Shown: in pieces, positions 31,803 to 48,078 of the stretch
Layout: every line of letters starts with the position of its first letter
How positions within the stretch are numbered: the stretch's first letter is position 1
Origin: Chitinivibrionales bacterium
GTDB taxonomy: Bacteria > Fibrobacterota > Chitinivibrionia > Chitinivibrionales > WJKA01
DNA length: 64,000 nt
Assembly: GCA_038247415.1 (NCBI GenBank)
Contig: JBBRUX010000008.1
Span: 30,602-94,601, forward strand
Direction of reading: 5' to 3'
The notes under the pieces: model-generated
The model's database searches: none
What the model saw: only the letters and a program-made list of their open reading frames with translations
What the model was told of the DNA's origin: nothing
Translations under genes and position numbers: made by a program

Positions 31803-32753
31803 TTATCGAATGAATCGAAGCAGTCGGTTAAAGCGTATTCCTGCAATCCCCTTTTTTTGTGGACTATGCGACCAGAGTACGCAAACAACCTGCCCCGAAA
31901 TAGATGAAACTTTTGCTGGACCAGTGTAGCGGGAATCATAACCATTACACCAATCATCTGCTAACAGAAAAATATATGATTCTTTGAGGTGGTAGCGGAA
32001 CAATTTCGTTTTACCCTCGAAAAGTGAAAAAATGACAGTTACTGTTTTATCGTTATACACCGACGATAAATAAGCTTTCATCCGATCCCAAAAGAAATAA
32101 TTAAACGCCAGAGAGTCGGGTACGTCTTTAATGGGTTTTGGAAAAAGTGAAAAATCAGCGAGTGGAGGATTCATAAGCGGCGTACCATTAATGAATACTT
32201 CGGGTACGATTGTATAAGCATTGTGCGAGTTTTCGGCACGTATCATGGCTACAGAAAAGAAAAAATCACGCAGCGACAAGGTATCCAGTTCGAGGTACTC
32301 GCCTTTACGGGGAATGCAATATGCTTCCATGGTGTCTCGTGGAGAATAGCTGGGTGGCAAAGCTTGCATACCATACGGAATGTGGTGCATCGAATCGATT
32401 CGTGGGCGACGGGTTTTGAGCATCCCATTGGATATCGCAACCGTATCACCCGCAACGGCAACAATTCTCTGGCAGGTATGGCGCTTGTTGATAGCGTCTT
32501 TAATTACCACCACGGTGTTGGGATGCGGCTTGAATAAATGGGGCCACGATGGTGCAAAAGGCAACTTCCACAAAAGAACCTGATCTCCCGGGGAAATGGT
32601 AGGCTGCATTTGATCGGTTGCTATATGAATAGTATCAATGACGAAAATTTTAACAATAAAGAGAATTAAAAAAAGCAGTACGCCACGCTTTACCTGACGA
32701 TAGATCCAGATTCTCCGGTCGATTGGAGCAGTGGTAAGAGGGGTGGCTGCCAT
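31803..32753 (-). CDS. Signal peptidase I (LepB)-fold protein lacking the Ser/Lys dyad
   Basis: Has an N-terminal TM anchor. SPase-I boxes are recognisable but altered: box B reads [11 protein letters not shown] (expected SMxPT), box D reads [12 protein letters not shown] (expected KRvxGxPGD), and box E reads [14 protein letters not shown]. It lies immediately downstream of lepA, the classical lepA-lepB arrangement. Confidence 0.7.
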
Positions 32754-32755
32754 GA

Positions 32756-34561
32756 TTATTCCCTTTTGAGAACAGCTAAAAAGGCTTCTTGTGGAATTTC
32801 CACATTGCCAACTTGCTTCATTCGCTTTTTACCTTCTTTTTGTTTTTCGAGAAGCTTGCGTTTTCGGGAAATGTCGCCACCGTAGCATTTTGAGGTAACG
32901 TCTTTTCTAAATGCCTTGACAGTCGTTCGTGCGATAATGCGGGAGCCAATGGCTGCCTGGATTGCCACTTCGTACATTTGCCGTGGAATAAGCTCTTTTA
33001 GCTTTGAGGTGAATTCCTGACCGTAGGTATAACTTTTGTCTTTATGAATAATGGTTGAAAAGGCGTCTACCTGATCTCCATTGATCATGACGTCAAGCTT
33101 TACAAGATCGTCATTTTGATATTCTGCAAGCTCGTAGTCCATAGAGGCATACCCCCGCGACACGCTTTTAAGCTTATCAAAAAAATCGATGATAACCTCT
33201 GAGAGTGGAATGCGATAATGTAGACATACGCGGGTTGTCTGGAGGTATTCCATAGTAACTAGTTTGCCGCGTTTGTCGTCGCAGAGTTTCATGATTGAAC
33301 CGGTATAATCGGTAGGGGTAACTATTTGTACCTTGGCAATGGGTTCGCCAATTGAGGTTATCTGCTGGATGGGGGGCAAATGCGCTACGCTGTCGATAAA
33401 GATAGTGTCGCCATTGGTAAGAATAATCCGGTACTTTACGTTAGGAAATGTCGTAATGATATTGACATTGTATTCGCGAAAGAGCCTCTCCTGTACTACT
33501 TCCATATGAAGCAAACCAGAAAATCCTGCGCGAAAACCAAAACCTAATGCGGTAGAGGTTTCTGTTTCGTAGCTAATAGATCCATCGTTAAGCTGGAGTT
33601 TTTCGAGTGCGGTTTTTAAATCTTCGTAATCTTCTTTGTCTACAGGATAAATTCCTGAGAAAACCATGGGTTTAATTTCTTTGTAGCCCGGAAGAGGCGT
33701 TTGACTTCCATTACGGAGCGTGGTGATCGTATCACCGATTTTAATATCGGAGATTGTCTTGATATTTGCAACAACATAGCCTACTTCGCCAACACTCAGC
33801 TCTTCTTTGGCAATACGATTTGGTTTAAAGTGGCCAAGTTCTGTTGCTTCCCGATCGGTAAGGTTGGAGAGAAACCGAATAGGCGATCCAAGTTTGAGAC
33901 TACCCTCAAAAACACGGATGTATGCAACTGCACCACGAAAGGGGTCGTAGATAGAATTAAATACAAGCGCTTGTAAAGGATTGGCTGCACTTCCTTTAGG
34001 GGCTGGTACATCATCGATGACCCGATGGAGAATTTCTCGCACGCCTAAACCAGACTTTGCAGAACAAGAAAGGATGGTTTCGGGATCGATGCCCAAAAGA
34101 TCGGAAATTGCCCTGCGGGTAGATTCTACATCGGCCGAGGGAAGATCGATTTTGTTCATTACAGGAATGATGGTAAGGTCGAGTTCCATGGCAAGATAGA
34201 TATTCGTGAGCGTTTGTGCTTCTATTCCCTGTGTTGCGTCAACAACAAGAATTGCGCCTTCGCATGCAGCAAGCGATTTAGAAACCTCGTAGGTAAAATC
34301 GACATGGCCTGGAGTATCGATAAGATTAAGACAATAGAATATGCCGTTATCGCGTTTATATTCCATGCGGATTGGATGCGATTTGATAGTAATACCGCGT
34401 TCCCGCTCAAGATCCATATCATCGAGCACCTGCTCCTGCATCTTGTTTTTTTCGATGGTAGAAGTAATTTCCAGGAGCCGGTCGGCTAACGTCGATTTGC
34501 CATGATCAATGTGGGCAATAATACAAAAGTTACGAATATTCTCAACAGGGATCAATGCCAT
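32756..34561 (-). CDS. lepA: Elongation factor 4
   Basis: Contains IIAHIDHGKST, DTPGHVDF and NKIDL. The characteristic LepA C-terminal domain is present (...KCYGGDISRKRKLLEKQKEGKKRMK). Confidence 0.97.
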   Translation of the reverse strand: MALIPVENIRNFCIIAHIDHGKSTLADRLLEITSTIEKNKMQEQVLDDMDLERERGITIKSHPIRMEYKRDNGIFYCLNLIDTPGHVDFTYEVSKSLAACEGAILVVDATQGIEAQTLTNIYLAMELDLTIIPVMNKIDLPSADVESTRRAISDLLGIDPETILSCSAKSGLGVREILHRVIDDVPAPKGSAANPLQALVFNSIYDPFRGAVAYIRVFEGSLKLGSPIRFLSNLTDREATELGHFKPNRIAKEELSVGEVGYVVANIKTISDIKIGDTITTLRNGSQTPLPGYKEIKPMVFSGIYPVDKEDYEDLKTALEKLQLNDGSISYETETSTALGFGFRAGFSGLLHMEVVQERLFREYNVNIITTFPNVKYRIILTNGDTIFIDSVAHLPPIQQITSIGEPIAKVQIVTPTDYTGSIMKLCDDKRGKLVTMEYLQTTRVCLHYRIPLSEVIIDFFDKLKSVSRGYASMDYELAEYQNDDLVKLDVMINGDQVDAFSTIIHKDKSYTYGQEFTSKLKELIPRQMYEVAIQAAIGSRIIARTTVKAFRKDVTSKCYGGDISRKRKLLEKQKEGKKRMKQVGNVEIPQEAFLAVLKRE

Positions 34562-34720
34562 TACAGTGTCCTCAAAAAGTTAAAAAATACGAGCTCATTC
34601 CAAAGCAAGCAGATGCAAATTCTGGCGCGCAGTCTGCAAAATATGAGAATGCACGGTATATAGGATTATAATAAGTCCCTAAATATACAAAATGACGGGG
34701 TCAGCAAATTCCCCTTGTTA

Positions 34721-35296
34721 TTACAAGCGTGTTTTTTTTGGTGATTTCATTACTGCTAATGTAACAAAGGTTGTTATGCCACTGGATACACCAACCCCGA
34801 TAACGAGCCCAAGCCGACCTTGGTAGGCGATGTGTTCGATAATGTGAGTGCGATCGTAGATGAGTGCTAAAAAAAGTCCCGATGAAATGTAGGCAACAAC
34901 AATAGAAACAACCCATAAGACAAATTCAAGCGTAATGGTAAATGAACCCGTTATGAATTGCCGGAGGTGTTTTCCACCAAAAAGTGAGAGCGCAATGCAT
35001 CCGCCAAAAATAAGGTCTCGCACGATGGTCGTTGCTATACCGCGCGAAAGTGAATTGGTAGCAAACGGGATAAGAAGCATAATAGTTAATGATGTATACA
35101 GGTAAATTCGCGAGGGATAGATTTTGGCACACGCAATAAGCACAGAGAGGAAAAAGCCCAAAAGAATAAATTGAAATCCTTGGTTTTTATAGTTGAGCAT
35201 CGATTGCCCTGCTACCATAAATCCGATAAGAACAGATCCAAATGTGCCAGAAAGTACCATGATAAGGGGATCGTATTTTTGAGCAGTTGAATCCAT
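34721..35296 (-). CDS. Polytopic membrane protein, unknown family
   Basis: A 191-aa ORF with about 5-6 hydrophobic helices. No motif was recognised. Confidence 0.5.
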   Translation of the reverse strand: MDSTAQKYDPLIMVLSGTFGSVLIGFMVAGQSMLNYKNQGFQFILLGFFLSVLIACAKIYPSRIYLYTSLTIMLLIPFATNSLSRGIATTIVRDLIFGGCIALSLFGGKHLRQFITGSFTITLEFVLWVVSIVVAYISSGLFLALIYDRTHIIEHIAYQGRLGLVIGVGVSSGITTFVTLAVMKSPKKTRL

Positions 35297-35319
35297 GAAA
35301 TCTCCAGTATGTGAAACGG

Positions 35320-36216
35320 TTAAGGTGCAGAATCTTTGACACGAGGTGAAACAAAAATATGCTTTTCTCGTTGTATAAATTCTTTGAGGCTCGTTGGTTT
35401 TTTGCCGGTGAGGTCTTCGTAGAAGCGAGAAATTGCAGGAGCTTTCTGGAATCGTGGCAAGAAATGCAACAAGATCATGACAATAATCAAACCGATGGCA
35501 ACGCCTTCTTTCTTTTTAAGGAAAAAATACGAGATCGGATTAGTATTACGATAAGTAAATGTCTCTCCCACGATGGTGGTTAAGAGCGCTGCAACTTTGG
35601 CAAACGGTTCGTTTTCGTAACCAGTAATTTCGATTGCCCGATTTTTATACTTCTCAAAATTGCACAGCAGCACAGCACTTGTTTCGCCAATATTGGAAAT
35701 GTCTACCCAGTTAAATACCGCTCTCCCTGCAGGAAGACAAATGCGGCGATGTGCTATAATATCAGGCAAAAGTGTGGTGGTTAGATTTTGCATAAAATAG
35801 CTCGGTCGTAAAAAAATATACTTAAAATCATGTTCTCTAATAAGGTGCTCGATTTTATTATGGGGAATAACGCGGCTTGTTTCTACGCCTTGAACCGACA
35901 AAAAGAGAATGTTAGAAATGCCGGCTGTTTTAGTCGCTTGTATAAGGGGTTTAAAAAACAAGTCTACATTAGAAATATGCGGTGGACGCAAGAGAAAAAC
36001 GGTGTCTATGCCAGTAAGTGCTTGGGCAAAGGTGTTTGAATTTTCAAAATCGAAGAGTACATACTGGAGTGTTGGGAAGTGGGCAAAATTTTTTTGCGCC
36101 CGAGAAATATCGCGCACCCCGGCAACAATACTGTTTTGGGACGAAGAGCTCAACAGAGAGCGAATTACTTCTTGGCCAATATTGCCGGTAGCACCGGTGA
36201 TGAGGATTTTTGCCAT
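35320..36216 (-). CDS. NAD(P)H-binding NmrA-like/atypical SDR protein
   Basis: The start is taken at the ATG at 36216 (MAKILITGATGNIGQEV), which places the Rossmann GxxGxxG loop at the N-terminus. The track start at 36288 would add 24 unmatched residues. Confidence 0.75.
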   Translation of the reverse strand: MAKILITGATGNIGQEVIRSLLSSSSQNSIVAGVRDISRAQKNFAHFPTLQYVLFDFENSNTFAQALTGIDTVFLLRPPHISNVDLFFKPLIQATKTAGISNILFLSVQGVETSRVIPHNKIEHLIREHDFKYIFLRPSYFMQNLTTTLLPDIIAHRRICLPAGRAVFNWVDISNIGETSAVLLCNFEKYKNRAIEITGYENEPFAKVAALLTTIVGETFTYRNTNPISYFFLKKKEGVAIGLIIVMILLHFLPRFQKAPAISRFYEDLTGKKPTSLKEFIQREKHIFVSPRVKDSAP

Positions 36217-36312
36217 GGTTTGTTGTCTCCTAGTTTTTAAAAATGAGAGTCTGCTTGTAAATATACCATAGAGCGATTCATTGGCCAAGCACTATGTGAG
36301 AATTAAAAGGGG

Positions 36313-37011
36313 TTAGAAACACTCTTTATAGCAGAAGGCTGGTTTTGTGGATGTATTGTCCCATATATGAATTGAGCTTCCCTTGCACGATTTCAGATCG
36401 GTGCAAGTTCCACATGAGGTCGTATCGATCCACGATCTATGTCGAAACTTTTTAAATTCGTGTTCCCAGAGGTAGGCAAGATTGTGGGTGGCGATGTTAC
36501 CTTCTGTAAAACAGTCGGCATTATTTGAGCACCCGGTAATTCTCCCATCTGCAAGAATGGATGTAATGTTGACACCTGCTCTGCAGAAAAAAGGTTGAGT
36601 GCGGATTTTTTTGTCGATATACAGAGGCAAATACCCCTCACAACTAAAGGATACATCAAGGCCCTTTTTACGAAGGGCTTTTTTGTGAGATGCAATCCAG
36701 TCAATCATGTGCCGTGTTTGGACCGGATCAAGAAGTAATTCGGAATTGTTTTTAGCTCGGCCTATGGGAAAAATGCGAAACAGTCTCCATGATGGAACTT
36801 TGTACTCAATAAGAATCTCTGATAGGGCGTCGAGTTCATTAAGATTTCGAGGGTTGACACAAGTTACTACATCACGGTGCGAAATAGGCAAGGCAGAAAG
36901 AATTGAGAGCGCAGTAAGAACCCGATCATATGACTTCTCGTTGCCACGCAGCCACGAGTGCGATTCTTTGAGTCCGTCAAGACTTACGGTACTGCTATAG
37001 CATGAGCCCAT
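36313..37011 (-). CDS. N-terminally truncated radical SAM/SPASM paralog (no Cx3Cx2C; functional status uncertain, possible pseudogene)
   Basis: From MGSCYSSTVSLDGLKESHSW onward it aligns with residues ~135-356 of the enzyme at 37627..38697. I estimate about 40 percent identity by eye. The SPASM cysteines are kept (CRAG, GC, CGTCTDLKSC). The whole track ORF (36313..37206) contains no CxxxCxxC motif. Its part upstream of 37011 overlaps ORF 37040..37327, whose frame carries the real homology. Confidence 0.55.
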   Translation of the reverse strand: MGSCYSSTVSLDGLKESHSWLRGNEKSYDRVLTALSILSALPISHRDVVTCVNPRNLNELDALSEILIEYKVPSWRLFRIFPIGRAKNNSELLLDPVQTRHMIDWIASHKKALRKKGLDVSFSCEGYLPLYIDKKIRTQPFFCRAGVNITSILADGRITGCSNNADCFTEGNIATHNLAYLWEHEFKKFRHRSWIDTTSCGTCTDLKSCKGSSIHIWDNTSTKPAFCYKECF

Positions 37012-37039
37012 TCCTGTATTCTGGAAAGGAGCATGGTTA

Positions 37040-37327
37040 CTACTTGGATCGCATGGTGACAATCGTGTCTTCGCCCGGGCGAGTGTAGGCGATGGTCGTA
37101 TCGAAAAATGCTCCACCATTTTCGGAACTATCCGTATCCTGAAGAATAGCCAGTACTCTATTTCCGGATCTGGCTGCCTGATTGACATCTGTATAGCCGT
37201 ATGCAAGGCCTTCCGGATTCGTGAATTCTGTTCCTAGGGTATCGGGAATGCTTTTCCCATTTTGTAGCGAGAGGAAGGTAATTTTTAAATAAAGAAGAAA
37301 ATTCCAGTATTTCGTGATCAAGTTCAT
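37040..37327 (-). CDS. Short paralog of the rSAM-associated secreted protein
   Basis: Its start context GGTATTTTATG is identical to that of 38702..39184. Shared blocks are AYG...SG..V and DTDSSENGGAFFDTTIAY vs DVDGASNGSFSPKDTIVS. It is 95 aa versus 160 aa for the other copy. Confidence 0.4.
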   Translation of the reverse strand: MNLITKYWNFLLYLKITFLSLQNGKSIPDTLGTEFTNPEGLAYGYTDVNQAARSGNRVLAILQDTDSSENGGAFFDTTIAYTRPGEDTIVTMRSK

Positions 37328-37487
37328 AAAATACCTTTATTAGTAGGGTAAATATAATTCCGGTTAATGGTGGTTGGGGAAAAAAAATAAGATTCTTTGA
37401 AAGATAAGAATGTCTGGACCACAAATTTACATAATAAATATAATAAAAATAATTTTAAAAACACCTTCATATATTAAATATTTTCAC

Positions 37488-37522
37488 GATAATCAATGCA
37501 ATCAAATTAATCACAAGAATCA
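37488..37522 (-). promoter_or_regulatory. Conserved upstream element, copy B: TGATT x4 at 9-nt phasing
   Basis: The minus strand reads TGATTCTTG TGATTAATT TGATTGCAT TGATTATC. It matches 39365..39399 at 34 of 35 positions. It lies about 160-195 nt upstream of the ATG at 37327. Confidence 0.6.
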
Positions 37523-37626
37523 GTGGTGCTGACAAGGGTTTGTGTCGCTCGTAGTGTGCAAGGTGTAGTGTCAAGTATCGTGCAATGAAGATTTGGTATG
37601 CCACCTCTCGTGAGCTTCAACGCAAC

Positions 37627-38697
37627 CTATTTAATCTTCTCATAATGACAAACCAGCAGCTCATGCCCCGGGCCTTCTCGCAGATGAAGCCCATTGCCTT
37701 CGCAGTATTTGAACTGTTTGCAGGTTGCGCAGTCTCCGGTTTTTGCCCACGATCGGTTACGCATCGACTCGTAGCGGTTGTTCCAGCAGTCTAAAAAGTT
37801 GTCTTTGTAAATATTCCCCTGAATAAAATCTCCTCTTAGGCTTGGGCATGCAGAAATGCTGCCGTCGGCGAGAACTGATCCGACCGTAATGCCGGCTCTA
37901 CAGAAGAAAAAGCCGTCGCGAGCTTTGCCCTCAAATTTGCCAAGAAATCCTTCGCATCCGTAGGTGGCATCTATTTCTTGCTTGTCGCGGGTAGCGGTAA
38001 TAAAGTGCATGAGCGTAGTAAATTCCGAATCTGCAAGCAGGAGATCTTCGGTTTCTTTGGCGCGGCCTTTGGGGAAAATGGTAAATAAGCGCCATTTTTT
38101 GACATTATTATCGGTAAGAAGCTTGCGGATTTCGTCGAGCTCACCCAGGTTGCGTTTGTTAACACAGGTTACAACATCAAAAATAAGGTCTTTTTGTTGG
38201 GAACAGAATTTGATTGCATTAAGGGCTTTTTTGAAAGAATCGGATTTCCCGCGCATCCAATTATGAGAATCTTGTAAACCATCTAAGCTAATGGTAATGG
38301 ATCGCAAACCAGAATCGCACAGTGATTGAAGTCTTTTTTCGGTAAGTAAATAGCCATTAGTAACCATTCCCCAGGGGTACCCTTTGGCAAAGATTTGCTT
38401 TCCACAAGCATCCAGATCTTGTCTAACCAGAGGCTCCCCGCCTGTTATTGCAACTATTGTTTTATGCGGATCATACTGGGTTGCTACCTGATCGAGAACA
38501 TTGGCAAAATCGGCAAAAGGCATATCGGGTGTGGTTGTATCTTTGGTGCAATCGGATCCACAGTGAATGCAATTGAGGTTGCACCGAAGAGTGCACTCCC
38601 AAAAGAGATAATTGAGCTCGTGAAGTTGCTTTTGAACCGAGCGATAGGCGCGATGAATTTCGAGGCTAATGGTGGTTTTTAATGACACATCACGCAT
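37627..38697 (-). CDS. Radical SAM enzyme with C-terminal SPASM domain
   Basis: Has the CxxxCxxC motif (CNLNCIHC), the GGEP motif (ITGGEPLV) and TNG. C-terminal auxiliary-cluster cysteines are present (CRAG...AC...CATCKQFKYCEG...C). It starts 4 nt after the stop of the upstream small gene. Confidence 0.9.
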   Translation of the reverse strand: MRDVSLKTTISLEIHRAYRSVQKQLHELNYLFWECTLRCNLNCIHCGSDCTKDTTTPDMPFADFANVLDQVATQYDPHKTIVAITGGEPLVRQDLDACGKQIFAKGYPWGMVTNGYLLTEKRLQSLCDSGLRSITISLDGLQDSHNWMRGKSDSFKKALNAIKFCSQQKDLIFDVVTCVNKRNLGELDEIRKLLTDNNVKKWRLFTIFPKGRAKETEDLLLADSEFTTLMHFITATRDKQEIDATYGCEGFLGKFEGKARDGFFFCRAGITVGSVLADGSISACPSLRGDFIQGNIYKDNFLDCWNNRYESMRNRSWAKTGDCATCKQFKYCEGNGLHLREGPGHELLVCHYEKIK

Positions 38698-38701
38698 TGT
38701 G

Positions 38702-39184
38702 TTAATTTGTAGGATCTACTTTAATGTCAACGGTCTTTTCTGCATGGCCCTTGTCCCAGGTTCCATTTGGATCTTTTAGATCGGTGCTGGGAATAGAAAC
38801 AATAGTATCTTTAGGGCTAAATGATCCATTTGAAGCACCATCAACATCCGTTATGGTAACTTTTATTGGATTATTCTCATCGGGATAAGATGAAAATTCC
38901 AGCGAATAGGCACCATTTGAATCTGTGATGGACGTATCCCGCGTATATGAAGAGGGGAGTGTATCGGCTGCAAAGACATTTAGTCCTTTAACAGGCAATT
39001 GTGTTGCAGAGCTTTTCACGGTTCCGCTTATTTTGTAGTCTGCCATAGGCATTCCGTATGCAGGAGCTGGGCCATACATGACTCCGTCACAATTGCAGAA
39101 AATTCCCAAGACTCCTGTTATTGCCAAGCTTGCTAGCTTGAGGATACGAAACATTGCTTTTTTGTAGCCGTTAGAGAGTGCCAT
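38702..39184 (-). CDS. Secreted (possibly lipo-)protein associated with the radical SAM/SPASM enzyme
   Basis: A signal-like N-terminus (KKAMFRILKLASLAITGVLGIF) is followed by CNCDG. Then come MYGPAPAYGMP and a CarboxypepD_reg-like beta-sandwich pattern (YKISGTVKS...VKGLNV...TDSNGAYSLEF). Confidence 0.7.
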   Translation of the reverse strand: MALSNGYKKAMFRILKLASLAITGVLGIFCNCDGVMYGPAPAYGMPMADYKISGTVKSSATQLPVKGLNVFAADTLPSSYTRDTSITDSNGAYSLEFSSYPDENNPIKVTITDVDGASNGSFSPKDTIVSIPSTDLKDPNGTWDKGHAEKTVDIKVDPTN

Positions 39185-39229
39185 AAAATACCCTGTATGT
39201 TAATGGGTGTAGATATACATTTATTAACT

Positions 39230-39257
39230 AATATACAATGAGATATTGCAAAGTCAA
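39230..39257 (-). promoter_or_regulatory. Candidate sigma70-type promoter for cassette A
   Basis: The minus strand reads TTGACT-N16-TATATT about 45 nt upstream of the ATG at 39184. This is pattern match only, and the -35 is not conserved in cassette B. Confidence 0.3.
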
Positions 39258-39364
39258 TACGAGGGTAGTGGGGGAGCGTGCAAAAAAAATGTCTGGACCG
39301 CTGATTTATATGATTAGTATGATGGAGATGATTTTCAAACAGCATACACTCTGCAAGGTTTCAA

Positions 39365-39399
39365 GATAATCAAAGCAATCAAATTAATCACAAGAATCA
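39365..39399 (-). promoter_or_regulatory. Conserved upstream element, copy A: TGATT x4 at 9-nt phasing
   Basis: The minus strand reads TGATTCTTG TGATTAATT TGATTGCTT TGATTATC. On the + strand, AATC falls at 39368, 39377, 39386 and 39395. It matches 37488..37522 at 34 of 35 positions. Confidence 0.6.
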
Positions 39400-39443
39400 A
39401 GGGCATTACACGAACTTTTTTGCCTTAAAAAACCACCCGTGCC

Positions 39444-41216
39444 TTACAGAACTTCCATTTCAAGCCTTTTCATAATATCAAGTGCCTCAGCATTATCCGG
39501 ATGCATTGTCACAATTTTCTTTACATACCGCTTGGCTTTTTTGACATCACTTGCATCCAGTGCTGCTGATGCTGCTTTCCAGAATACCGATTCTGATGCT
39601 CTAAGCTTTTTTTCACAGAGTGCTCGTTCGTAAGCTTGCAATGCAGACCGGGGGTCTTCTACCGCACGGTGAATGTCGCCAATAAGGACATATGTTTCAG
39701 CGGTAGCTGAATCGGTTGCTATTGCATCGTGCAAAAGCTCCACTGCCTTTATTGGGTCTCCTTGTATTAAAAATATCTTGGCAAGAGAGAGATATCCAAC
39801 AGGATTCTGACGCGGTGCCATAAGAATAGATTTAATAAAATACGGAGCTGATTCTATATACTGACCCTCTTGGAGCATTGCAGTTCCCATGTGGGAATAA
39901 TACTCTACAACAGAAGGGTAATGGCAAATTGCTTGCTGCGATAGATCGATGGCTTCTTTATATTTTTTCGTTTCGAGTAGAATTTCGGTAGCATAGTAGT
40001 ATGCATTCATTCTAACTGCATGGGGATCGAGAGCTGTCGATCGCACCGGCGGAAATTCTGAGATCGCGGCTACAAAGAAGTATAATGCCTTTTTGAGGTT
40101 TTGGGTATGATGAAAAATAAGCCCTAAAAGGTGGGCCGCTTCTATGCGCGTTTTGTCGATGTAAAGACAACGAAATAATAGCCGCTTTGCTTTTGCATAT
40201 TCACCAAGGCCATAAAAGAGCCACCCGCTCGTGTACAGTGCTTGTGTGTAAAGGTCCGGGCGTTGGTCATAGGTTTCTTGGGTTATAAGAGACGCATACG
40301 TTTCGATAGCAAGAAGCGAATCTCCTTTTATCGCGTGCGCATCGCCAAGGCTATACAGCAGTGCAGGATCGTTTGGGCGTTCTTGCAATTCGAGCGCTAA
40401 AAGTTTTATATTGCGATCTGCTTTGACCATTTGTAGAGCATGATCCTGATATCCCGTATGATATATCGTAATATCTGGCATTGATACTACGGGCCATTGC
40501 TGTGCAGTTTCCTGGGTAAGGATCTGTTCGTGAATTCTTCCGGTAAACCGAAGCGAAGCTGAATTTGGGAAAAGTCGAGCTTGCATAAACCCGGGGCCAT
40601 GTCCATGATACTGAGAATTGACAACGCGAAATAGATGGATAGAATCGACAGGGTTTTCTAGGCAGGCGCGAATGGATGCGCATGAATTTTCGCACACACG
40701 ATCGTCGGCATCTATCCATAAAATGTATCGTCCATGAGCCTGTTCCAATGCGCTGTTTCTAGCATCGGAAAAATTATCGTTCCAGGGCCGGCTCAGGATG
40801 GTTGCACCAAATTCAGCTGCAATATCCTTTGTCGCATCGGTGGAACCGGTGTCAATAACAATAATTTCATCTGCTATGGTATCAATTGAATTGAGGGCAT
40901 CCCGCACAATTTTTGCTTCGTTGCGAACAATGAGCGTCACTGTCAAAGTGCAGGCACGCGCAGTAATTTCGTTTTCGTAACGGGTAAGCAATTCTTGGGT
41001 TTGAGGCTCTTTTTGATTTTGGGAAGCGTGGGATTTGGTAAGCAGTGCCTGTGCGCGCAACGGCATCTTTTGTACACTATACCATTTGGATGCTTCGGTA
41101 TAATACTGCTGTAGTGTAATTTCACGTGTGTAAACACGATTGCGGAGCGCAGTTGCCGATTGTTGGGGCTGCACACCTGTTTTTTGAGTTTGACTATCCA
41201 TGACAAAAACTCCCAT
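39444..41216 (-). CDS. GT2 glycosyltransferase fused to C-terminal TPR repeats (GmaR-like architecture)
   Basis: The N-terminal GT-A domain has LTVTLIVRNEAKIV, IVIDTGSTDAT and WIDADD (DxD). The C-terminal ~300 aa are TPR-like repeats (repeated A..Y...G/A...A pattern). An alternative start lies at the ATG at 41201. Confidence 0.85.
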   Translation of the reverse strand: MGVFVMDSQTQKTGVQPQQSATALRNRVYTREITLQQYYTEASKWYSVQKMPLRAQALLTKSHASQNQKEPQTQELLTRYENEITARACTLTVTLIVRNEAKIVRDALNSIDTIADEIIVIDTGSTDATKDIAAEFGATILSRPWNDNFSDARNSALEQAHGRYILWIDADDRVCENSCASIRACLENPVDSIHLFRVVNSQYHGHGPGFMQARLFPNSASLRFTGRIHEQILTQETAQQWPVVSMPDITIYHTGYQDHALQMVKADRNIKLLALELQERPNDPALLYSLGDAHAIKGDSLLAIETYASLITQETYDQRPDLYTQALYTSGWLFYGLGEYAKAKRLLFRCLYIDKTRIEAAHLLGLIFHHTQNLKKALYFFVAAISEFPPVRSTALDPHAVRMNAYYYATEILLETKKYKEAIDLSQQAICHYPSVVEYYSHMGTAMLQEGQYIESAPYFIKSILMAPRQNPVGYLSLAKIFLIQGDPIKAVELLHDAIATDSATAETYVLIGDIHRAVEDPRSALQAYERALCEKKLRASESVFWKAASAALDASDVKKAKRYVKKIVTMHPDNAEALDIMKRLEMEVL

Positions 41217-41242
41217 CCATTGGAATTGAGTTTACATACAAC

Positions 41243-41554
41243 TTATGCAACATAATGTGCGCTGGTTGTATCATTGTTTACATTTTCAAAAAGTGGCTTG
41301 TATACCGCATTGCTCATGAGTCTTCGGGCTCCAGCAATGGTAAATCGCTCGGTATATAATAGTTTTTTAATTTCTAGCAGAATGCTGATATCTCTCTCGA
41401 TAAAGCGTCGTTGTTTTCCTTCGGTACGATGCGGTGACAAAAAACCGTCAAATTCACGTTCCCAAAAACGAATTGTGTGTCGCGGCACATCGCACAGTTT
41501 AGATGTATCTCCTATTGTAAATCCTTCGACGCCCTGCTTACTCGTGTTTGTCAT
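41243..41554 (-). CDS. MerR-family HTH transcriptional regulator (short)
   Basis: FTIGDTSKLCDVPRHTIRFWEREFDGFLSPHRTEGKQRRF matches the MerR N-terminal winged HTH, and a short coiled helix follows. Length is 103 aa. Confidence 0.8.
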   Translation of the reverse strand: MTNTSKQGVEGFTIGDTSKLCDVPRHTIRFWEREFDGFLSPHRTEGKQRRFIERDISILLEIKKLLYTERFTIAGARRLMSNAVYKPLFENVNNDTTSAHYVA

Positions 41555-41914
41555 ACAATGCTCCTGGTGTACCTAGTGTACTAGCGTGATGCGTGTGTAG
41601 TTGTTATTAAAAGGTATCGTCAAACATTGCGTAAAAGATTAACGATTGCTTTAATTACTAATGTATAATAAGCAAGGGGTATGCCAAAGAACGTCTTTGG
41701 TGCAATGTTAAAGCATTGGTTGCGTGCCTCTTTATAATATCGTTATTATAAATGAGTTACAATAAAAAAATGATAGAGGGTCGGGCGCTTGGAAATCTGG
41801 GAATAAGGAGAGAGCTACACTACAGTAGGTTTTAGTGGGCAAAAGACGACGCTATGAGGAGTTTTATGCCGCGTTGCGCGAAACCGTATGAGCTACGGCT
41901 TCACTACGAGGGCA

Positions 41915-42154
41915 TCAAGGTTTTTTAGGTGTTCGGAATGCTTGAGCAAAATCGGAGAGGTTGATAGAAGGAGATTGGGCCGCAGCTTTGTTCTCATTCT
42001 GGATACGTTCGTAGATTTCTTCGCGGTTGACAGCGATATTTTTTGGGGCTTCTATGCCAATTTTAACATGGCGTCCATCGAGATCAACAACTTTGATAAC
42101 AATGTTGTCGCCGATGCGGATAGATTCTCCGAGTTTTCGAGTGAGGACCAGCAT
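41915..42154 (-). CDS. csrA: Carbon storage regulator CsrA (FliW-partnered type with C-terminal extension)
   Basis: The start is set at [51 protein letters not shown]. The track ORF start at 42286 overlaps fliW. The gene begins 4 nt after the fliW stop. Confidence 0.95.
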
Positions 42155-42158
42155 TGTA

Positions 42159-42578
42159 TTACTTCCTTCCCAGAATTGGTTCCTGGGTTGTATACCGGTC
42201 ATCATCAACGATAATCTGTTTGCCAAGACGAGCAGATTTATTGATAAGGATCGGGCCTGCCAGATTTGCGGTAGAATCGGCTGCATTCACGCGAATGGTA
42301 ATGATCGCGTAGAGAAGAATATCTTCGGGCTTGCCTATTTTGAGGTCATCGAGCTGCTCTTTTGTCATTTTTGGCGAATAGTCGGGCAAAAAGAGCAACG
42401 GATTGACAATCGCAAATCTCAAACGAGCCCCATCGATACACACGAGCCATTCAAAGGGAGCATATTCGGCAAGATTCACTAAAACAAAATCTTTGTTTTC
42501 TTCAAAGCCGGGAATTCCGTTAGGAAAATGAAGCACATCTTCCGAAGCGTATACAAGGTCGTTAAAGAAGTCGGACAT
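42159..42578 (-). CDS. fliW: Flagellar assembly factor FliW
   Basis: The ATG at 42578 gives [26 protein letters not shown], matching the FliW N-terminal F.xGxPGFE signature. The gene sits between the flagellin gene and csrA. Confidence 0.9.
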
Positions 42579-42711
42579 GGTTTTGCCTGGGGGATCAGGT
42601 GAAGAGCAATCATCAAAACTTAAGAAAAAATGCTTTCTTGTAGAATACAAGTCAAGCAAGATCGCCACTAATATGTGCGAGGCGCCCTGCTCGACTTATT
42701 CTATAAATCTA

Positions 42712-43560
42712 TTAACCCTTAAGAAGCGATAGAACACTCTGAGGTGCTTGGTTCGCTTGTGAGAGCATCGCCGTTGACGACTGCTGAAGAATTTGGTTAC
42801 GCGTGAACTGTGTTGTTTCATACGCAAAATCGGCATCACGGATAACTGATTCGGCTGCTGCCATATTAGTTTCCTGATTTTCTTGATTGGCAAGTGCATG
42901 TTCTAATCTATTGGTCTTGGCTCCAAGATCTGCGCGAAGAGTATTCACCATATTAAGCGCCGAATCGAGACTTGAAATTGCAGAAGTTGCCATGGCCTGA
43001 GTGGTTACCCAAACGTTCTGCGTGACGCTGATACCCATTGCTGTGCAGTCGACACCCGAAATAGTGATAAGAACAATGTCGGAGCCTGTCGTGTTATCGT
43101 TAGGGCCTACATGAATTACACCACCGGTTCCCCACGGTGCTGTACCATTAAGAAGTTTTTGACTATTATATTGTGTTCCGTTTACAATACGGTCGACTTC
43201 GGTTCGAAGCTGGTCAAATTCCACCTGAATAAAACCGCGTTCTTTAGATGTCAAGGTGTCATTGGCTGCCTGGATGCATAGTTCGCGCATACGTTGAAGC
43301 ATTGATTCAGTTTCAACTAAGGCGCCTTCTGCTATATTAAGGAGGGACATTCCATCCTGCGCATTGCGCGTGCCCATGGCAAGTCCGCGTACTTGGGTAC
43401 GAAGCTGTTCGGATACGCTTAAGCCGGCAGCATCATCGGCCGCGCGGTTGATGCGAAGACCCGTTGACAATTTCTCTAACGATTTACTGATATCCCGCTC
43501 TACACTGCGAATCGAATTGCCGGTGATCATCGCCGGCACATTGTGATTGATACGTGGCAT
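42712..43560 (-). CDS. fliC: Flagellin
   Basis: Has the N-terminal D0/D1 region MPRINHNVPAMITGNSIRSVERDISKSLEKLSTGLRINRAADDAAGLSVSE and the C-terminal ...TTQFTRNQILQQSSTAMLSQANQAPQSVLSLLKG. SD AAGGAGG lies upstream. Confidence 0.95.
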   Translation of the reverse strand: MPRINHNVPAMITGNSIRSVERDISKSLEKLSTGLRINRAADDAAGLSVSEQLRTQVRGLAMGTRNAQDGMSLLNIAEGALVETESMLQRMRELCIQAANDTLTSKERGFIQVEFDQLRTEVDRIVNGTQYNSQKLLNGTAPWGTGGVIHVGPNDNTTGSDIVLITISGVDCTAMGISVTQNVWVTTQAMATSAISSLDSALNMVNTLRADLGAKTNRLEHALANQENQETNMAAAESVIRDADFAYETTQFTRNQILQQSSTAMLSQANQAPQSVLSLLKG

Positions 43561-43563
43561 AGT

Positions 43564-43655
43564 CCCCTCCTTACACTAAGTGTGCGTCCCTGCAGTCGGC
43601 ATTATTACCTGACTGCCATCGTAGTCGTCCTGACTATACCTGCTTCCATGCAATC
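43564..43655 (-). promoter_or_regulatory. Flagellin 5' leader with four GGA motifs (candidate CsrA binding sites)
   Basis: The minus strand carries CATGGAAGC and the hairpin TAGTC-AGGAC-GACTA (43622..43636) with GGA in its loop. It also carries the hairpin GCAGTC...GACTGC (43592..43616), followed by GCAGGGACG. The SD TAAGGAGGGG lies at 43564..43573. Confidence 0.45.
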
Positions 43656-43664
43656 AACTTAATT

Positions 43665-43680
43665 AGCAAAGGCTGTGCCA
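43665..43680 (-). promoter_or_regulatory. Sigma54 (-24/-12) promoter upstream of the flagellin gene
   Basis: The minus strand reads TGGCAC-AGCCT-TTGCT, an exact fit to TGGCAC-N5-TTGCW. It lies about 105 nt upstream of the flagellin ATG. Confidence 0.6.
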
Positions 43681-43762
43681 TAACGTAAGGTGTTGAATTT
43701 ATTAGAGTTAATTTTCGGCACTGCGTAATGAGCTGCTATACATAGGAAAAAAATGTCACCTA

Positions 43763-44989
43763 CTATAAATAATTGACCAGGGATGGCTGAATAATGGTAG
43801 CTGCTGCTTTGAGGGCAGCTTGATATGCCGTTTGCGCAAGCGAAAATTTTCCTATGGTATCTGCATATTCTGCGTCTTCGAGATCCGATTGGAGGCGTGA
43901 TGTTTCTGTGTACTGGGATTCATTGCGATCGAGCGTTGTTTCGAATCGGTTGATGCGGGCTCCGTTTTTGCTTTGCGCCGAAAGAAGCACCTTAAAGGAA
44001 GAATCTATTGTGCCAATGGATGATTCGATGCCTGCCCGATTATTATGGAGTAAATCTGAACCAAGGCCAATTGCTACATCGAGCAAGTGCTGTCCATTGG
44101 TTGAATCTCGCATGAGCTCGTCGGCAGTTATATTGATGGGCGTTATGATAGTATCTTCGATTTCCCGAAAGACATCTCCTGAAGCAACAACCTTGTCGCC
44201 ATAAATATCTCGGCCTTGTGAGATGTAATCGAACGAAACCTGAAAACCAGCAAGCGTATAGCGCCCTAAGGGCCCTGCAGCAAAGGTGCCACCCTCCGAT
44301 ACGTCAACTGCTAAAGCTGCATTGATGGGCGTTATGGTACCGGAAACATAATTGACGGTGTAATCGCGGCCTTCTACATAGGCAGTATTGCCAATTTTAA
44401 GCTGGAATGATCCCGGAATGATACGGGTGATTGGATCCAGAGTATCTGCTTGTCGCAGTTGCGCTGCCACACCAACACCGCCGGAGCCATCAAAAAATGC
44501 CATTTCTTTTGAGGAATAGTTGAGTGCATTACCGCTTTGTGAAGTTACAAGAGGCAAGGGAGGAATTTTAGTTTGTGTGCCACCAAAAATGTAGTCGCCT
44601 TTGTAGGTAGAATTACCAAGAGACACAAATTGTCGTAAGAGCTGTTCCTGCTCCTTTTGAATGTAAAGGCGCTCGTTTGACGAAAGAACATCATTAGAAC
44701 CCTGGATAGCAAGCTCTCGCATGCGCTGCATGAGCGTATTCATAGAAAGCATTGCGGTATCGGAAACTGTCATAAAACTCATACCATCATTGATGTTCGA
44801 TTTGAATTGGCTTATCTGCTGCTGTTTAGAAATCAATTTTAAATCATTGGCAACATCAACGGGGCTATCCGATGGTTTCATAAGACGTTTACCGGTAGAG
44901 AGCATCTCTTCCAGATGACCCAGATCGGAATATCGCCGGTTGAGCGTTGTTTGTGTTTGTCGATTAAGTTCTCTAAAGGTAACGCGCAT
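43763..44989 (-). CDS. flgL: Flagellar hook-associated protein 3
   Basis: Has a flagellin-like N-terminus (MRVTFRELNRQTQTTLNRRYSDL...SDSPVDVAN...MQRMRELAIQGSND) and C-terminus (...QTAYQAALKAAATIIQPSLVNYL). It follows flgK. Confidence 0.9.
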   Translation of the reverse strand: MRVTFRELNRQTQTTLNRRYSDLGHLEEMLSTGKRLMKPSDSPVDVANDLKLISKQQQISQFKSNINDGMSFMTVSDTAMLSMNTLMQRMRELAIQGSNDVLSSNERLYIQKEQEQLLRQFVSLGNSTYKGDYIFGGTQTKIPPLPLVTSQSGNALNYSSKEMAFFDGSGGVGVAAQLRQADTLDPITRIIPGSFQLKIGNTAYVEGRDYTVNYVSGTITPINAALAVDVSEGGTFAAGPLGRYTLAGFQVSFDYISQGRDIYGDKVVASGDVFREIEDTIITPINITADELMRDSTNGQHLLDVAIGLGSDLLHNNRAGIESSIGTIDSSFKVLLSAQSKNGARINRFETTLDRNESQYTETSRLQSDLEDAEYADTIGKFSLAQTAYQAALKAAATIIQPSLVNYL

Positions 44990-45001
44990 AGGAAGTCCTT
45001 T

Positions 45002-46711
45002 TTATGAAGCCATGTTCAAGAGGTAGTCAAGCATCTGGCTGGCTGTACTTATAACACGCGCAGCAGCTTGATACGAATGCTGAAACTTGATAATGTCAGC
45101 CATTTCTTCATCGATGGAAACGCCTGAGATGGAATCCTGATGCTTTTCGTATTGATTGACAAGAAAGGTTCGAGTTTCAAGATTGGAGGTTGCTTCTTGA
45201 CGTGCAAGACCGAGATGGCCAATAAATGCGCTATAGTATTGTACATAGGTGTTTGTGGGGTTGCCAAGTGCATCGGGTTGCATGGTGAGCCCCTGGCGAA
45301 GTTGTGCTATGGCAACGGCATTAGTATTATCTCCGGGACCCTTGAATCCGCCCGAGCGATATTGAAAATCGACATTCATCTGCCATCCATCGTATCCGGC
45401 ATGGAGCATTTGCACAGTTCCATGTGCATAATCGATGCGATAGTCAACGTTTTCTACGAGGGTTGCAGTTAAGCCTGTGAGGGGCTGGGTTCCTACCATG
45501 CGCACCGAGTTTTTAATAACATTGCGCGCTACATCGGCACCTGCTGCTGGCAAAACATTTGTTTTTGACAAGAACGTAGGCGCTACACCAAAGTTGAGCG
45601 CACCCGCACCAAAAACATTGGCAGGTGCAGCATAAGCTTGATTGCCTGTGGCAGCCGAAATGTTTTGTACATCTGAGCTGATCGATTCCGAAAGCGCTAT
45701 ATCGGATGCCCCTGTGGCATTGGGGTTAAAAAAATCTAGTCCTGTGTATCCCATTAAATTATAGCCGCGTTGGTGAAGATTATTGACAGAAGTCATAAGA
45801 GCTTTTGCAATGGTGTTAAGTTTTTCTTCGTATTCGGGAATAATGGTATCTCTACAGCCAAAAAGACCGTTGATGGCGCCACTTGTTGGGTTATAATTTT
45901 TTTGTGAGTCTTTAAAGCGTAAACCGATATTGCTTGCCTGAGTTCCATCGGGCATGGTGAATGTCGTGGTGGTGATTTCTATATCGCGTGAACCAACCGG
46001 AGAAACCAGAAGGTTTCCATTGCTTGTTACACTAATTTGCCCTTGTGAATTTTCTTGAGTATCGATATCAACAAGTGAGGAGAGTTCTTTTAAAAGGCCA
46101 TCCCGTTTGTCACGACTATCGTTTGCCTTTTGATTATTAATTTCTACCGAACCTATTTCAATGTTGAGGTTGAATATTTCCTTGGTGAGTTCGTTGACGC
46201 TATCGGCATTTGCACGCAATTTTTCGTTTGTTGCAGCTTTGAGATTGCTGAGTTCTCCACTGAGATTATGAAACACATCTACCATGATATCGGCACTGGT
46301 TTTTACCATGGTGCGCGCCGAAATATCGGCAGGATTATTTGCAAGGTTTTGCCACGAATCGAAAAACTTATCGACAAATGAAGCGAGCCCTGTGGACCCA
46401 GGCTCGTTAAAAATATTCTCTATTTGTTGCAGGGTGTAGTCGTACTCTTGATAGCTGCCCACCTGCTGGTTTTGTCGTTGAATTTGTTGGTCGATCATTT
46501 TATCGCGCATGCGGTCGATATTAATTACGTCAACGCCAAATCCCATTTGTCCATATTGACCGTCGGCACGATAATCGGCAGTCATATTCAGCCGTTTACG
46601 GGAATATCCTGCAACATCGGCGTTTGATACGTTTTGTCCTGCGACATCCATACCAAGCTGCGCAGCAAATAAACCGCGGGTACCAATGCTTAAGGTAGAA
46701 AAAAGTCCCAT
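45002..46711 (-). CDS. flgK: Flagellar hook-associated protein 1
   Basis: The N-terminus is MGLFSTLSIGTRGLFAAQLGMDVAGQNVSNADVAGYSRKR. The C-terminal FlgK block is SGVSIDEEMADIIKFQHSYQAAARVIS. Confidence 0.95.
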   Translation of the reverse strand: MGLFSTLSIGTRGLFAAQLGMDVAGQNVSNADVAGYSRKRLNMTADYRADGQYGQMGFGVDVINIDRMRDKMIDQQIQRQNQQVGSYQEYDYTLQQIENIFNEPGSTGLASFVDKFFDSWQNLANNPADISARTMVKTSADIMVDVFHNLSGELSNLKAATNEKLRANADSVNELTKEIFNLNIEIGSVEINNQKANDSRDKRDGLLKELSSLVDIDTQENSQGQISVTSNGNLLVSPVGSRDIEITTTTFTMPDGTQASNIGLRFKDSQKNYNPTSGAINGLFGCRDTIIPEYEEKLNTIAKALMTSVNNLHQRGYNLMGYTGLDFFNPNATGASDIALSESISSDVQNISAATGNQAYAAPANVFGAGALNFGVAPTFLSKTNVLPAAGADVARNVIKNSVRMVGTQPLTGLTATLVENVDYRIDYAHGTVQMLHAGYDGWQMNVDFQYRSGGFKGPGDNTNAVAIAQLRQGLTMQPDALGNPTNTYVQYYSAFIGHLGLARQEATSNLETRTFLVNQYEKHQDSISGVSIDEEMADIIKFQHSYQAAARVISTASQMLDYLLNMAS

Positions 46712-46721
46712 AATTTCCTCA

Positions 46722-47222
46722 TTAGGCTATTTGGTTAAAGAGTCGACGCCGGATTGTTTCTGGCTCTTTGTGCCCGGGGGCATTGTAGCCTATTGGAGCG
46801 CTTGTGTTACGCGTAAAGATTTCCATGGTCTGTCCAAAAACTGATAATGATTCTGCAAGAAGGACCTGATTTGAAGCGTTGATTTCTGAAAATCTCTTAA
46901 TGGTTGCTTTGAGCTTTTGTTGAATATCGGCAAAAAGTGTTTTTTGTTCGGTTCCTGCGCATTCGATAATGTTTGACAATGAGGAGTGTCGTGTCTGGAT
47001 AACGCCCGGGAGTGAAATTGTATCACAAAGCTCTAGCCGTTGTTCTTCGAGATCTTCTATCTGACATGCGAGTTCGTCGTAGGCGATTGTGGTTGTCCTA
47101 ACGCCCACAACATCCTGATTTCGTAAGCAGGTGTTCATGCGGATTGCGGTTTCGACAAGTTGCTGATGACACCGCAAAAGCGATGCTAAAAGCGCATGGA
47201 GTTCTGCAAGTTTCTCGTCCAT
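46722..47222 (-). CDS. flgN: FlgN-like flagellar export chaperone
   Basis: A 166-aa helical protein immediately upstream of flgK. Its N-terminal pattern L..LL..L...Q.L is FlgN-like. The assignment rests mainly on position. Confidence 0.6.
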   Translation of the reverse strand: MDEKLAELHALLASLLRCHQQLVETAIRMNTCLRNQDVVGVRTTTIAYDELACQIEDLEEQRLELCDTISLPGVIQTRHSSLSNIIECAGTEQKTLFADIQQKLKATIKRFSEINASNQVLLAESLSVFGQTMEIFTRNTSAPIGYNAPGHKEPETIRRRLFNQIA

Positions 47223-47233
47223 AAGAAATATCC

Positions 47234-48037: not shown

Positions 48038-48062
48038 GGTGAATCCTTTCACAGTGGTGATT

Positions 48063-48078
48063 AGCAATTGGTATGCCG
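48063..48078 (-). promoter_or_regulatory. Sigma54-like promoter candidate for the flgJ-flgN-flgK-flgL unit
   Basis: The minus strand reads CGGCAT-ACCAA-TTGCT, with the GG and GC dinucleotides correctly spaced. It lies about 25 nt upstream of the ATG at 48037 and is a weaker match than the flagellin promoter. Confidence 0.3.

Follow-up and report, generated by a model that had tools for sequence, protein, structure and literature searches.

Organization of the locus

The DNA considered here is a stretch of 64,000 nucleotides (nt) from Chitinivibrionales bacterium (assembly GCA_038247415.1, contig JBBRUX010000008.1, forward-strand positions 30,602 to 94,601), which as a whole is called the window, and all positions are counted from its first letter. 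At 36,313–39,184 it contains two adjacent cassettes, A and B, each composed of a small gene followed by a gene related to radical S-adenosylmethionine (rSAM; SAM, S-adenosylmethionine) enzymes with a SPASM domain. NCBIfam describes such pairs as an "rSAM/lipoprotein system" by the models TIGR04133 (rSAM_w_lipo) for the enzyme and TIGR04134 (lipo_with_rSAM) for its partner. The open reading frames (ORFs) and the main features inside them, with protein lengths in amino acids (aa), are:

38702–39184, minus strand: cassette A partner, putative lipoprotein of 160 aa, TIGR04134
39047–39079, minus strand: two YG motifs of this protein (residues 36–46, M-Y-G-P-A-P-A-Y-G-M-P), the modification site proposed from the alignment and the survey of loci
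37627–38697, minus strand: cassette A enzyme, intact rSAM/SPASM protein of 356 aa matching TIGR04133, PF04055 and PF13186
37040–37327, minus strand: cassette B partner remnant, ORF of 95 aa homologous to the 137–139-aa partners of B-type enzymes
37277–37289, minus strand: approximate junction of a probable in-frame deletion in this small gene, between two similar L-x-I/V-T sites (exact breakpoint inferred)
36984–37034, minus strand: stub at the native start of enzyme B, ATG at 37034 followed by 16 codons (MLLSRIQEWAHAIAVP) and TAA, resembling B-type N-termini
36996–36999, minus strand: TATA at the putative deletion junction of the enzyme gene (N-terminal frame ..GCT ATA, C-terminal frame TAT AGC)
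36313–37011, minus strand: cassette B enzyme remnant, ORF of 232 aa corresponding to TIGR04133 model positions 127–346

A preliminary description, made by reading the letters of the window, had listed the same four minus-strand ORFs with the same boundaries, and all motifs quoted in it (FCNCDG, MYGPAPAYGMP, CNLNCIHC, CATCKQFKYC and CGTCTDLKSC), the start context GGTATTTTATG common to both small ORFs and the gap of 4 nt between the stop of the 160-aa gene and the start of the 356-aa enzyme gene were found again. Only the length given for the ORF 36313–37011 had to be changed from 233 to 232 aa, 233 being the number of codons with the stop included.

Since the source is apparently a draft or metagenome-assembled genome (MAG) contig of ~106 kb, the deletions in cassette B described below might be suspected to be assembly errors. 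Logan assemblies of three separate sequencing runs (SRR19962012, SRR19962013 and SRR19962014) are, however, 100% identical to the window and supply the only other contigs for a comparison of strains. Both deletion junctions are spanned by the assemblies L003 and L004, while L005 covers the small-protein junction only; in terms of runs, SRR19962013 and SRR19962014 span both, and the SRR19962012 contig stops before the enzyme junction. Because independent assemblies reproduce the window, the structure of cassette B is no assembly artefact, and an origin of its deletions in assembly errors is extremely improbable.

The cassette A module

Enzyme A aligns with positions 2–349 of the TIGR04133 model with a score of 540.6 bits (cutoff 425) and is recognized in Pfam by PF04055 (Radical_SAM) and PF13186 (SPASM). 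It carries the Cx3Cx2C motif at residues 39–46, the GGE motif at residues 86–88 and every SPASM cysteine; PF13186 matches the enzymes of both cassettes, and its invariant Cys columns are retained in both. The 160-aa protein scores 89 bits with TIGR04134 (cutoff 39.8, model positions 2–149). With both scores above the family cutoffs and the two genes in the adjacency that defines the system, cassette A is, by these models, an intact two-gene TIGR04133/TIGR04134 module, and the reference to such a system in the preliminary description proved to be correct for this cassette. Cassette B differs: the match of its enzyme to the model is limited to 220 C-terminal positions, and its small ORF goes unrecognized. 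Enzyme A groups with L086 and L088 (~70%) when 101 sequences are placed on a neighbour-joining tree, and the relatives of cassette A carry one cassette only. Both models are graded as "hypothetical equivalog" in NCBIfam, and close homologues of the 160-aa protein bear the JGI name "putative lipoprotein (rSAM/lipoprotein system)". Full-text literature searches returned no experimental work on TIGR04133 or TIGR04134: the one match by name had nothing to do with them, and a Bacteroides bacteriocin survey deals with another rSAM system.

The 160-aa partner is built from an N-terminal hydrophobic helix, the cysteines Cys30 and Cys32, a disordered tether with the YG motifs and a beta-sandwich. Its AlphaFold model, obtained with eight homologues, has a mean pLDDT (predicted local distance difference test) of 71 and consists of a helix at residues 6–28, a low-confidence tether at 26–46 that holds both YG motifs and a confidently predicted beta-sandwich at 49–156. 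The predicted sandwich matches transthyretin-like, carboxypeptidase-D regulatory (CarboxypepD_reg) and CnaB domains, which agrees with the CarboxypepD_reg-like pattern noticed earlier by eye; Pfam itself gives a CarboxypepD_reg match only below its threshold, and a search for solved structures of the partner lipoprotein found none. Among the closest homologues the residues C30, A40, Y43, G44 and P46 are invariant, so that the second motif takes the form Y43-G44-x-P46.

Nearly all beta-sandwich partners also conserve a D-x-D-[GS]-x-x-N-G loop, represented by residues 113–120 (D-V-D-G-A-S-N-G) in the window and kept in the cassette B remnant as well (DTDSSENGG). It resembles calcium-binding loops.

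Partner proteins across genomes

A scan of one genome per species registered the TIGR04133 module in at least 592 species-level genomes or loci. Most belong to Bacteroidales, Fibrobacter and Chitinivibrionales and some to Spirochaetales; the hosts include gut Bacteroidales and rumen Fibrobacter. The source genome of the window is absent from this collection, where the best match is 60%. Clustering of all flanking ORFs of 82 loci by blastp left the small lipoprotein as the sole conserved neighbour of the enzyme: one cluster is present in 64 of the 82 loci and a Fibrobacter variant in 6 more. No protease, transporter or RRE protein is found among the conserved neighbours of these loci. The earlier suggestion that the small protein is the likely substrate is well supported by these comparative data (a partner cluster in 64–70 of the 82 loci) and by the YG motif that the partners have in common.

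This motif is found in 73 of the 82 called partner ORFs; most of those without it were called wrongly or cut off. Tyrosine is preceded by E (51 cases), M (19), L (11) or A (9); the +1 position after YG is variable (T, V, A, S, M, F, P, C or Q), while +2 is occupied by P in 77 of 114 motifs, which gives [E/M/L/A]-Y-G-x-P as the usual form. The first YG usually lies 7–12 residues past the lipobox Cys. The folded domain is far less constant. Three minimal partners (L027, L041 and L048; 76–80 aa) combine a signal peptide with YG and have no domain at all, and together with L045 they make up a set of 55–80-aa proteins in which the signal peptide is accompanied by MYGVPP or KYGMPISKYGMPP and the beta-sandwich is missing. 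Therefore it is the YG stretch, not the domain, that appears to be needed by the enzyme. In Fibrobacter MAGs (loci L059, L061, L068, L069, L073 and L079) one enzyme is accompanied by 2–4 tandem partner genes, whose products have near-identical signal peptides (MFYKHWKKI.L..T.FFW..C) and the motifs CPEYGV, PLYGV or PAYGV, and bodies that differ greatly, being Cys-rich, Ser-rich or up to 449 aa long. Judging from these comparisons, the element common to the partners is the YG motif shortly past the lipobox Cys and not the beta-sandwich.

A partner homologue was also met apart from any enzyme: a lipoprotein 44% identical to the 160-aa protein of the window, with AYGIP kept, is encoded at 7001–7486 of L090 and 2807–3292 of L091, where no rSAM gene occurs within 7 kb and a PemK/RHH toxin-antitoxin pair adjoins. 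It is either an orphan partner or a protein served by an enzyme encoded elsewhere.

Proposed modification of the YG tether

Based on these data one can assume that the enzyme acts in the cytoplasm on the unfolded pre-lipoprotein before its Sec-dependent export, since it needs Fe-S clusters and SAM. The target would be the conserved YG motif in the flexible tether, with the signal peptide, conserved and specific to the clade, acting as the "leader" by which the precursor is recognized. Once modified, the protein would be exported and lipidated via the general lipoprotein pathway, which may account for the absence of a dedicated protease or transporter from the module. That TIGR04133 enzymes modify the YG tether at all appears moderately probable from the comparison of partners; the nature of the reaction can be suggested more tentatively.

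A possible chemical model is provided by spliceases, rSAM/SPASM enzymes that excise tyramine at XYG and whose native sites include PLYGLP, AMYGVV, MYG and LYG; splicease systems of two components, with no separate RRE protein, have been described (PMC11414181, PMC10533398, PMC11626197). Like PlpX, PcpX, RhaX and RcsX/RasX, the TIGR04133 protein is an rSAM/SPASM enzyme encoded next to the putative substrate gene, and like them it faces an invariant Y-G with variable X, PLYGLP and AMYGVV being similar to the [E/M/L/A]YG[T/V/M]P of the partners. The combination typical for spliceases, an rSAM/SPASM enzyme plus XYG in the adjacent precursor, is therefore found here both in the family at large and in the closest homologues of the window protein, where Y43-G44 does not vary. 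The differences lie in the enzyme and in the substrate. Enzyme A falls outside TIGR04103, which we take to be the model of the PlpX family, with 121 bits vs a cutoff of 725. This family corresponds to IPR026482 (PMC11002830). The putative substrates are proteins of 140–165 aa with Sec/lipoprotein signal peptides and not with leaders of the Nif11 or nitrile-hydratase type. On this analogy tyramine excision at the YG tether may be put forward as a tentative possibility, and the same reserve applies to the broader proposal that TIGR04133 enzymes are spliceases, or other backbone- or Tyr-modifying rSAM proteins, acting on Y-G of the pre-lipoprotein tether with the signal peptide as leader. Some 939 systems were reportedly predicted by Scott and co-workers from YG-rich neighbours, and the TIGR04133 family may already be among them. 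Their survey (Scott et al., Chem 2022) mined the YG-rich neighbours of all rSAM/SPASM proteins, as a passage in PMC10849128 describes it.

Several observations do not favour these ideas. The lipobox of the cassette A protein is non-canonical (GIFC/CNC) in comparison with the canonical LLGF[AS][ST]C of Bacteroidales partners, and in a few partners (L026, L010) YG is absent from the tether. TIGR04103 is the best-scoring peptide-maturase model for all 15 of the 15 TIGR04133 members tested, but it scores no better than the models of the heme enzymes AhbD and NirJ and stays far below its cutoff.

With the tether kept as the target, the reaction could be another one, for instance epimerisation, formation of a thioether with a Cys close by, or a cross-link or cyclophane built on Tyr. 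Maturases of the rSAM/SPASM type perform many chemistries, the NCBIfam matches include models of cyclophane, sactipeptide and ranthipeptide maturases, and in many partners the motif is directly preceded by a second Cys (CEYG, CAYG, CMYG). This second Cys is not universal, however, and a Y-G that does not vary, flanked by residues at −1 and +1 that do, fits the XYG rule of spliceases better than a cross-link to a fixed residue. Such other chemistry is conceivable at about the same low level of confidence as tyramine excision.

A different view is that the lipoprotein is not the substrate but a functional partner, for example a binding or delivery protein, and that the enzyme has a small molecule or cofactor as its target. 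Cytoplasmic location of the enzyme and export of the partner are compatible with it, and the best models after the own family of the enzyme are those of heme b synthase AhbD, NirJ and TIGR04053. Yet the two genes are tightly adjacent, as exemplified by the 4 nt between them in the window, and the partner bodies vary from beta-sandwich to Cys-rich, Ser-rich or none while the signal peptide and YG persist. Besides, several partner copies per enzyme, as in Fibrobacter, follow the usual logic of precursors. All this makes the role of a mere binding partner unlikely, and modification of the tether is preferred.

The proposed order of events has a parallel in DAG-RiPPs, where the multinuclear non-heme iron oxidases (MNIO) ChrH/DybH modify precursors with lipoprotein signal peptides before Lgt/Lsp lipidation (PMC13056109). 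Both systems are minimal two-gene clusters of an enzyme and a precursor with a lipoprotein signal peptide, both are common in Bacteroidota, and cytoplasmic modification followed by Lgt/Lsp lipidation would be shared by them if the scheme proposed for the TIGR04133 module holds. They differ in the enzyme, which is a radical SAM/SPASM protein here and not a ChrH-type MNIO, and in the target, CPxCGxG at the C-terminus of DAG-RiPP precursors vs YG just past the lipobox.

Two deletions in cassette B

The 232-aa ORF of cassette B scores 218.1 bits with TIGR04133, below the cutoff of 425, and thus falls outside the family as the model delimits it. It covers barrel strands 4–6 and the SPASM domain, whose cysteines are kept (PF13186, E 1.5e-5), and is devoid of the SAM-binding half with Cx3Cx2C and GGE. 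As had been seen before, it matches only the C-terminal part of enzyme A (residues 133–353, 39% identity, E 6e-58), and a regular-expression search found Cx3Cx2C neither in this ORF nor in its longest reading of 297 aa, which begins from TTG at 37206 and overlaps the 95-aa ORF in another frame. Much closer to it are the full-length L001 and L002 enzymes, with 57–60% identity over their residues 129–356, compared with 39% to enzyme A; the closest relatives are all full length, proteins of 353–362 aa encoded elsewhere. On the tree enzyme B belongs with L001, L002 and P0003–P0029 to a clade separate from enzyme A. Because the enzymes fall in separate clades, cassettes A and B are not a recent tandem duplication. 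Of the two diverged tandem cassettes claimed initially the two-cassette layout therefore holds, while their origin as tandem duplicates is not supported, and according to the tree cassette B represents another lineage of the TIGR04133/TIGR04134 module, older and from a different clade than A.

The native start of the broken gene can still be recognized. Its ATG at 37034 sits 5 nt past the stop of the small gene and opens the stub MLLSRIQEWAHAIAVP, which is similar to the N-terminal sequences of B-type enzymes, for instance MRLLPSPIQEYLHRLYK (an equally good score is reached by 39 of 2000 shuffles), and is read in a frame different from that of the downstream ORF. The latter resumes at ..YSSTVSLDG, corresponding to residue ~129 of the full-length enzymes, so that ~113 codons are missing, and with them barrel strands 1–3, the loop bearing Cx3Cx2C and the SAM-binding motif GGE; no N-terminal remnant of enzyme B was found in a search of all frames. 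Most likely an out-of-frame deletion of these ~113 codons removed the SAM half of enzyme B, and the TATA shared by the two frames at 36996–36999 can be read as a microhomology junction.

The small gene appears to have suffered independently. The closest full-length relatives of enzyme B each have a gene for a 137–139-aa partner directly upstream. Compared with the C-terminal 80 residues of the L001 partner, the 95-aa ORF shows 41% identity (E 6e-15, tblastn), including the common C-terminus (..TIVTMRSK vs ..TIVTMMNK), and its first 13 residues match the relatives' N-termini (MNLITKYWNFLLY vs MRIIRRFWKKLLY). After residue 13 the alignment has a gap of 44 columns (FLITGSTSVFIAACYGMPANYPLRNPWILWTIKIQDQNNLPIRG). 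Lost with it are the signal peptide's hydrophobic core, the Cys of the lipobox, the YGMP motif and the first strands, and no Cys residue is left in the remnant. Most likely an in-frame deletion removed ~44 residues of the cassette B small protein.

The 95-aa ORF has no NCBIfam or Pfam match, with no similarity to TIGR04134 even at E<=10, so the model does not place it in the family; the L001 partner itself reaches TIGR04134 with E 3e-6, which is below the family cutoff. Direct similarity between the 95-aa ORF and the 160-aa protein, of which it had been called a paralog, is not significant (E 0.46). Their relationship stands all the same, though homology of the 95-aa ORF to TIGR04134 proteins holds, on sequence grounds, only by transitivity through the L001 and L002 partners.

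Upstream regions

The non-coding DNA before both small genes (39185–39400 and 37328–37524, minus strand) is ~70% identical over ~200 nt, with an alignment score of 57.5 vs 5 +/- 6 for shuffled sequences. This homology ends at the start codons, and in the coding parts of the small genes nucleotide identity is no more than 50%, with 33% at third positions. The conserved elements are:

39359–39399, minus strand: block upstream of cassette A, four TGATT at 9-nt spacing and then TGAAA, 39 of 41 nt identical to the B block
37482–37522, minus strand: matching 41-nt TGATT block upstream of cassette B, 39 of 41 nt identical to the A block
39302–39333, plus strand: inverted array of four TGATT/TGATG units at 9-nt spacing upstream of cassette A, facing the first array

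The inverted array of cassette A sits ~25 nt downstream of the 41-nt block, and GGTCCAGACATT together with the start context GGTATTTTATG is also common to both upstream regions. In cassette B, at 37424–37455, C is replaced by T in each of four AATCA units (giving AATTA or a similar variant), which by its pattern is a systematic change and not random decay. The 41-nt block has two copies only within the window. TGATT arrays were not found in the loci of relatives, a metagenome scan with a generic pattern of four TGATT units returned unrelated tandem repeats only, and the conserved upstream regions gave no Rfam match. From its sequence the block looks like a shared protein-binding site or a product of conversion in the promoter region.

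Fate of cassette B

Two probable deletions in neighbouring genes suggest that cassette B is a pair of pseudogenes inactivated recently. Since a neutral frame of 700 nt stays open only briefly, recent double inactivation is the simplest reading, and the deletions must be recent because the retained parts are without decay. We consider this scenario quite probable.

The preliminary description had seen in the truncated ORF a possible maintained SPASM-only partner. In its developed form this idea implies that a protein of 232 aa, made of a half-barrel and SPASM and started from the internal ATG at 37011, serves enzyme A as an auxiliary subunit binding an Fe-S cluster or the peptide. Several facts can be set against inactivation on its behalf. 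The frame of 232 codons is still open, the cysteines of the auxiliary cluster are all kept, and the NCBI annotation calls the ORF a protein. Enzyme B retains 34 of the 35 family columns conserved at >=98% and 54 of the 57 conserved at >=90%; by conserved columns it ranks 14th–25th from the worst among the 101 sequences, which is within what intact members show. With a root-to-tip distance of 0.243, against 0.193–0.254 for its clade, it shows no acceleration of rate. Finally, the upstream element is conserved, and with a block 95% identical to that of cassette A, cassette B may still be transcribed. However, the open frame, the kept residues and the normal rate fit a recent deletion equally well and favour neither view.

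Other evidence speaks against a maintained protein more directly. The truncated form is confined to one genome and stands alone in its 90% sequence cluster among ~15 billion proteins. Its native start is out of frame, and the fragment itself starts only at strand 4, midway through the barrel. The ATG at 37011 abuts AGGA and lacks a spaced ribosome-binding site, which is a weak point for the idea, if one of limited weight, as only 17 of the 40 genes of the window have such a site. The neighbouring partner gene lost its signal core, Cys and YG motif by a separate deletion, as joint decay would look. Genuine SPASM-only relatives were not found either. An exhaustive HMMER search of representative proteins with the B ORF as query, aimed at a recurring SPASM-only architecture in other genomes, revealed no conserved family. 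Several proteins of ~230 aa with the common start M-x-T-I-S-I-S-I-D-G, which at first suggested one, proved to be artefacts: P0167 shows 100% identity to the corresponding segment of 362-aa proteins and is short because a conserved internal Met was picked as the start on fragmentary contigs, and P0228 and P0257 belong to frameshift-split genes with the Cx3Cx2C half just upstream. One other true N-terminal truncation, P0114, is isolated and has no partner gene. The nearest precedent for a "radical-dead" SPASM protein is the pseudo-SAM/SPASM family TIGR04347 (enzyme A scores 110 bits with it), whose members are likewise rSAM/SPASM homologues minus Cx3Cx2C. They form, in contrast, a conserved family of full-length proteins (390-position model), while the cassette B ORF is a one-off truncation without half the barrel. 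The maintained SPASM-only partner is thus not supported as an explanation: a role as auxiliary subunit is quite unlikely, and any retained function of the fragment hardly less so. Recent inactivation of both genes remains the preferred reading.

Double-cassette loci with both cassettes intact exist elsewhere, namely L079 (Fibrobacter succinogenes MAG, pair 85% identical) and L067 (63%).

Some unusual homologues were registered in the course of the survey. An isolated, N-terminally truncated TIGR04133 homologue of 260 aa, starting from model position ~103 and having no partner gene, lies at 2830–3612 of L212/L213; it adjoins a NACHT-like gene and is seen in at least 2 metagenome samples. Frameshift-split TIGR04133-like genes occur at 3060–5314 of L214 and 3130–4936 of L215. 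The partners encoded upstream of them are no lipoproteins and have the C-terminal sequence ..ALYAPPSYFNS, which may represent a Y-A-P-P variant of the YG motif, and of the two enzyme C-termini one has LYAPPSVLYAPPS and the other a JAB/MPN-like HTHPN..S..D tail.

Gene neighbourhood

None of the neighbours of the cassettes in the window (31803–36288 and 39444–48067) is conserved with the module in other genomes. They include:

31803–32753: S26 signal peptidase
32756–34561: lepA
35320–36288: NmrA-like reductase
39444–41216: GT2+TPR protein
41243–41554: MerR regulator
within 39444–48067: csrA, fliW, two flagellin-family genes (Flagellin_N/C domains), flgK and flgN

Implications

An intact cassette A module, a recently inactivated cassette B pair and the proposed modification of the YG tether, taken together, make a rather probable description of the locus. 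The window itself holds one working and one recently broken module, which corrects the idea of a maintained SPASM-only protein. As a new member of a known, uncharacterised system the locus draws its interest from the family-level YG hypothesis and not from cassette B. The comparative data make this hypothesis concrete and testable by mass spectrometry, with the YG tether as the site and the signal peptide as the leader. If it is true, hundreds of Bacteroidales, Fibrobacter and related anaerobes would export lipid-anchored proteins with a backbone modification installed by a radical SAM enzyme. Such proteins would be an rSAM counterpart of DAG-RiPPs, and the reach of post-translational backbone chemistry would widen from small peptides to lipoproteins that are exported.

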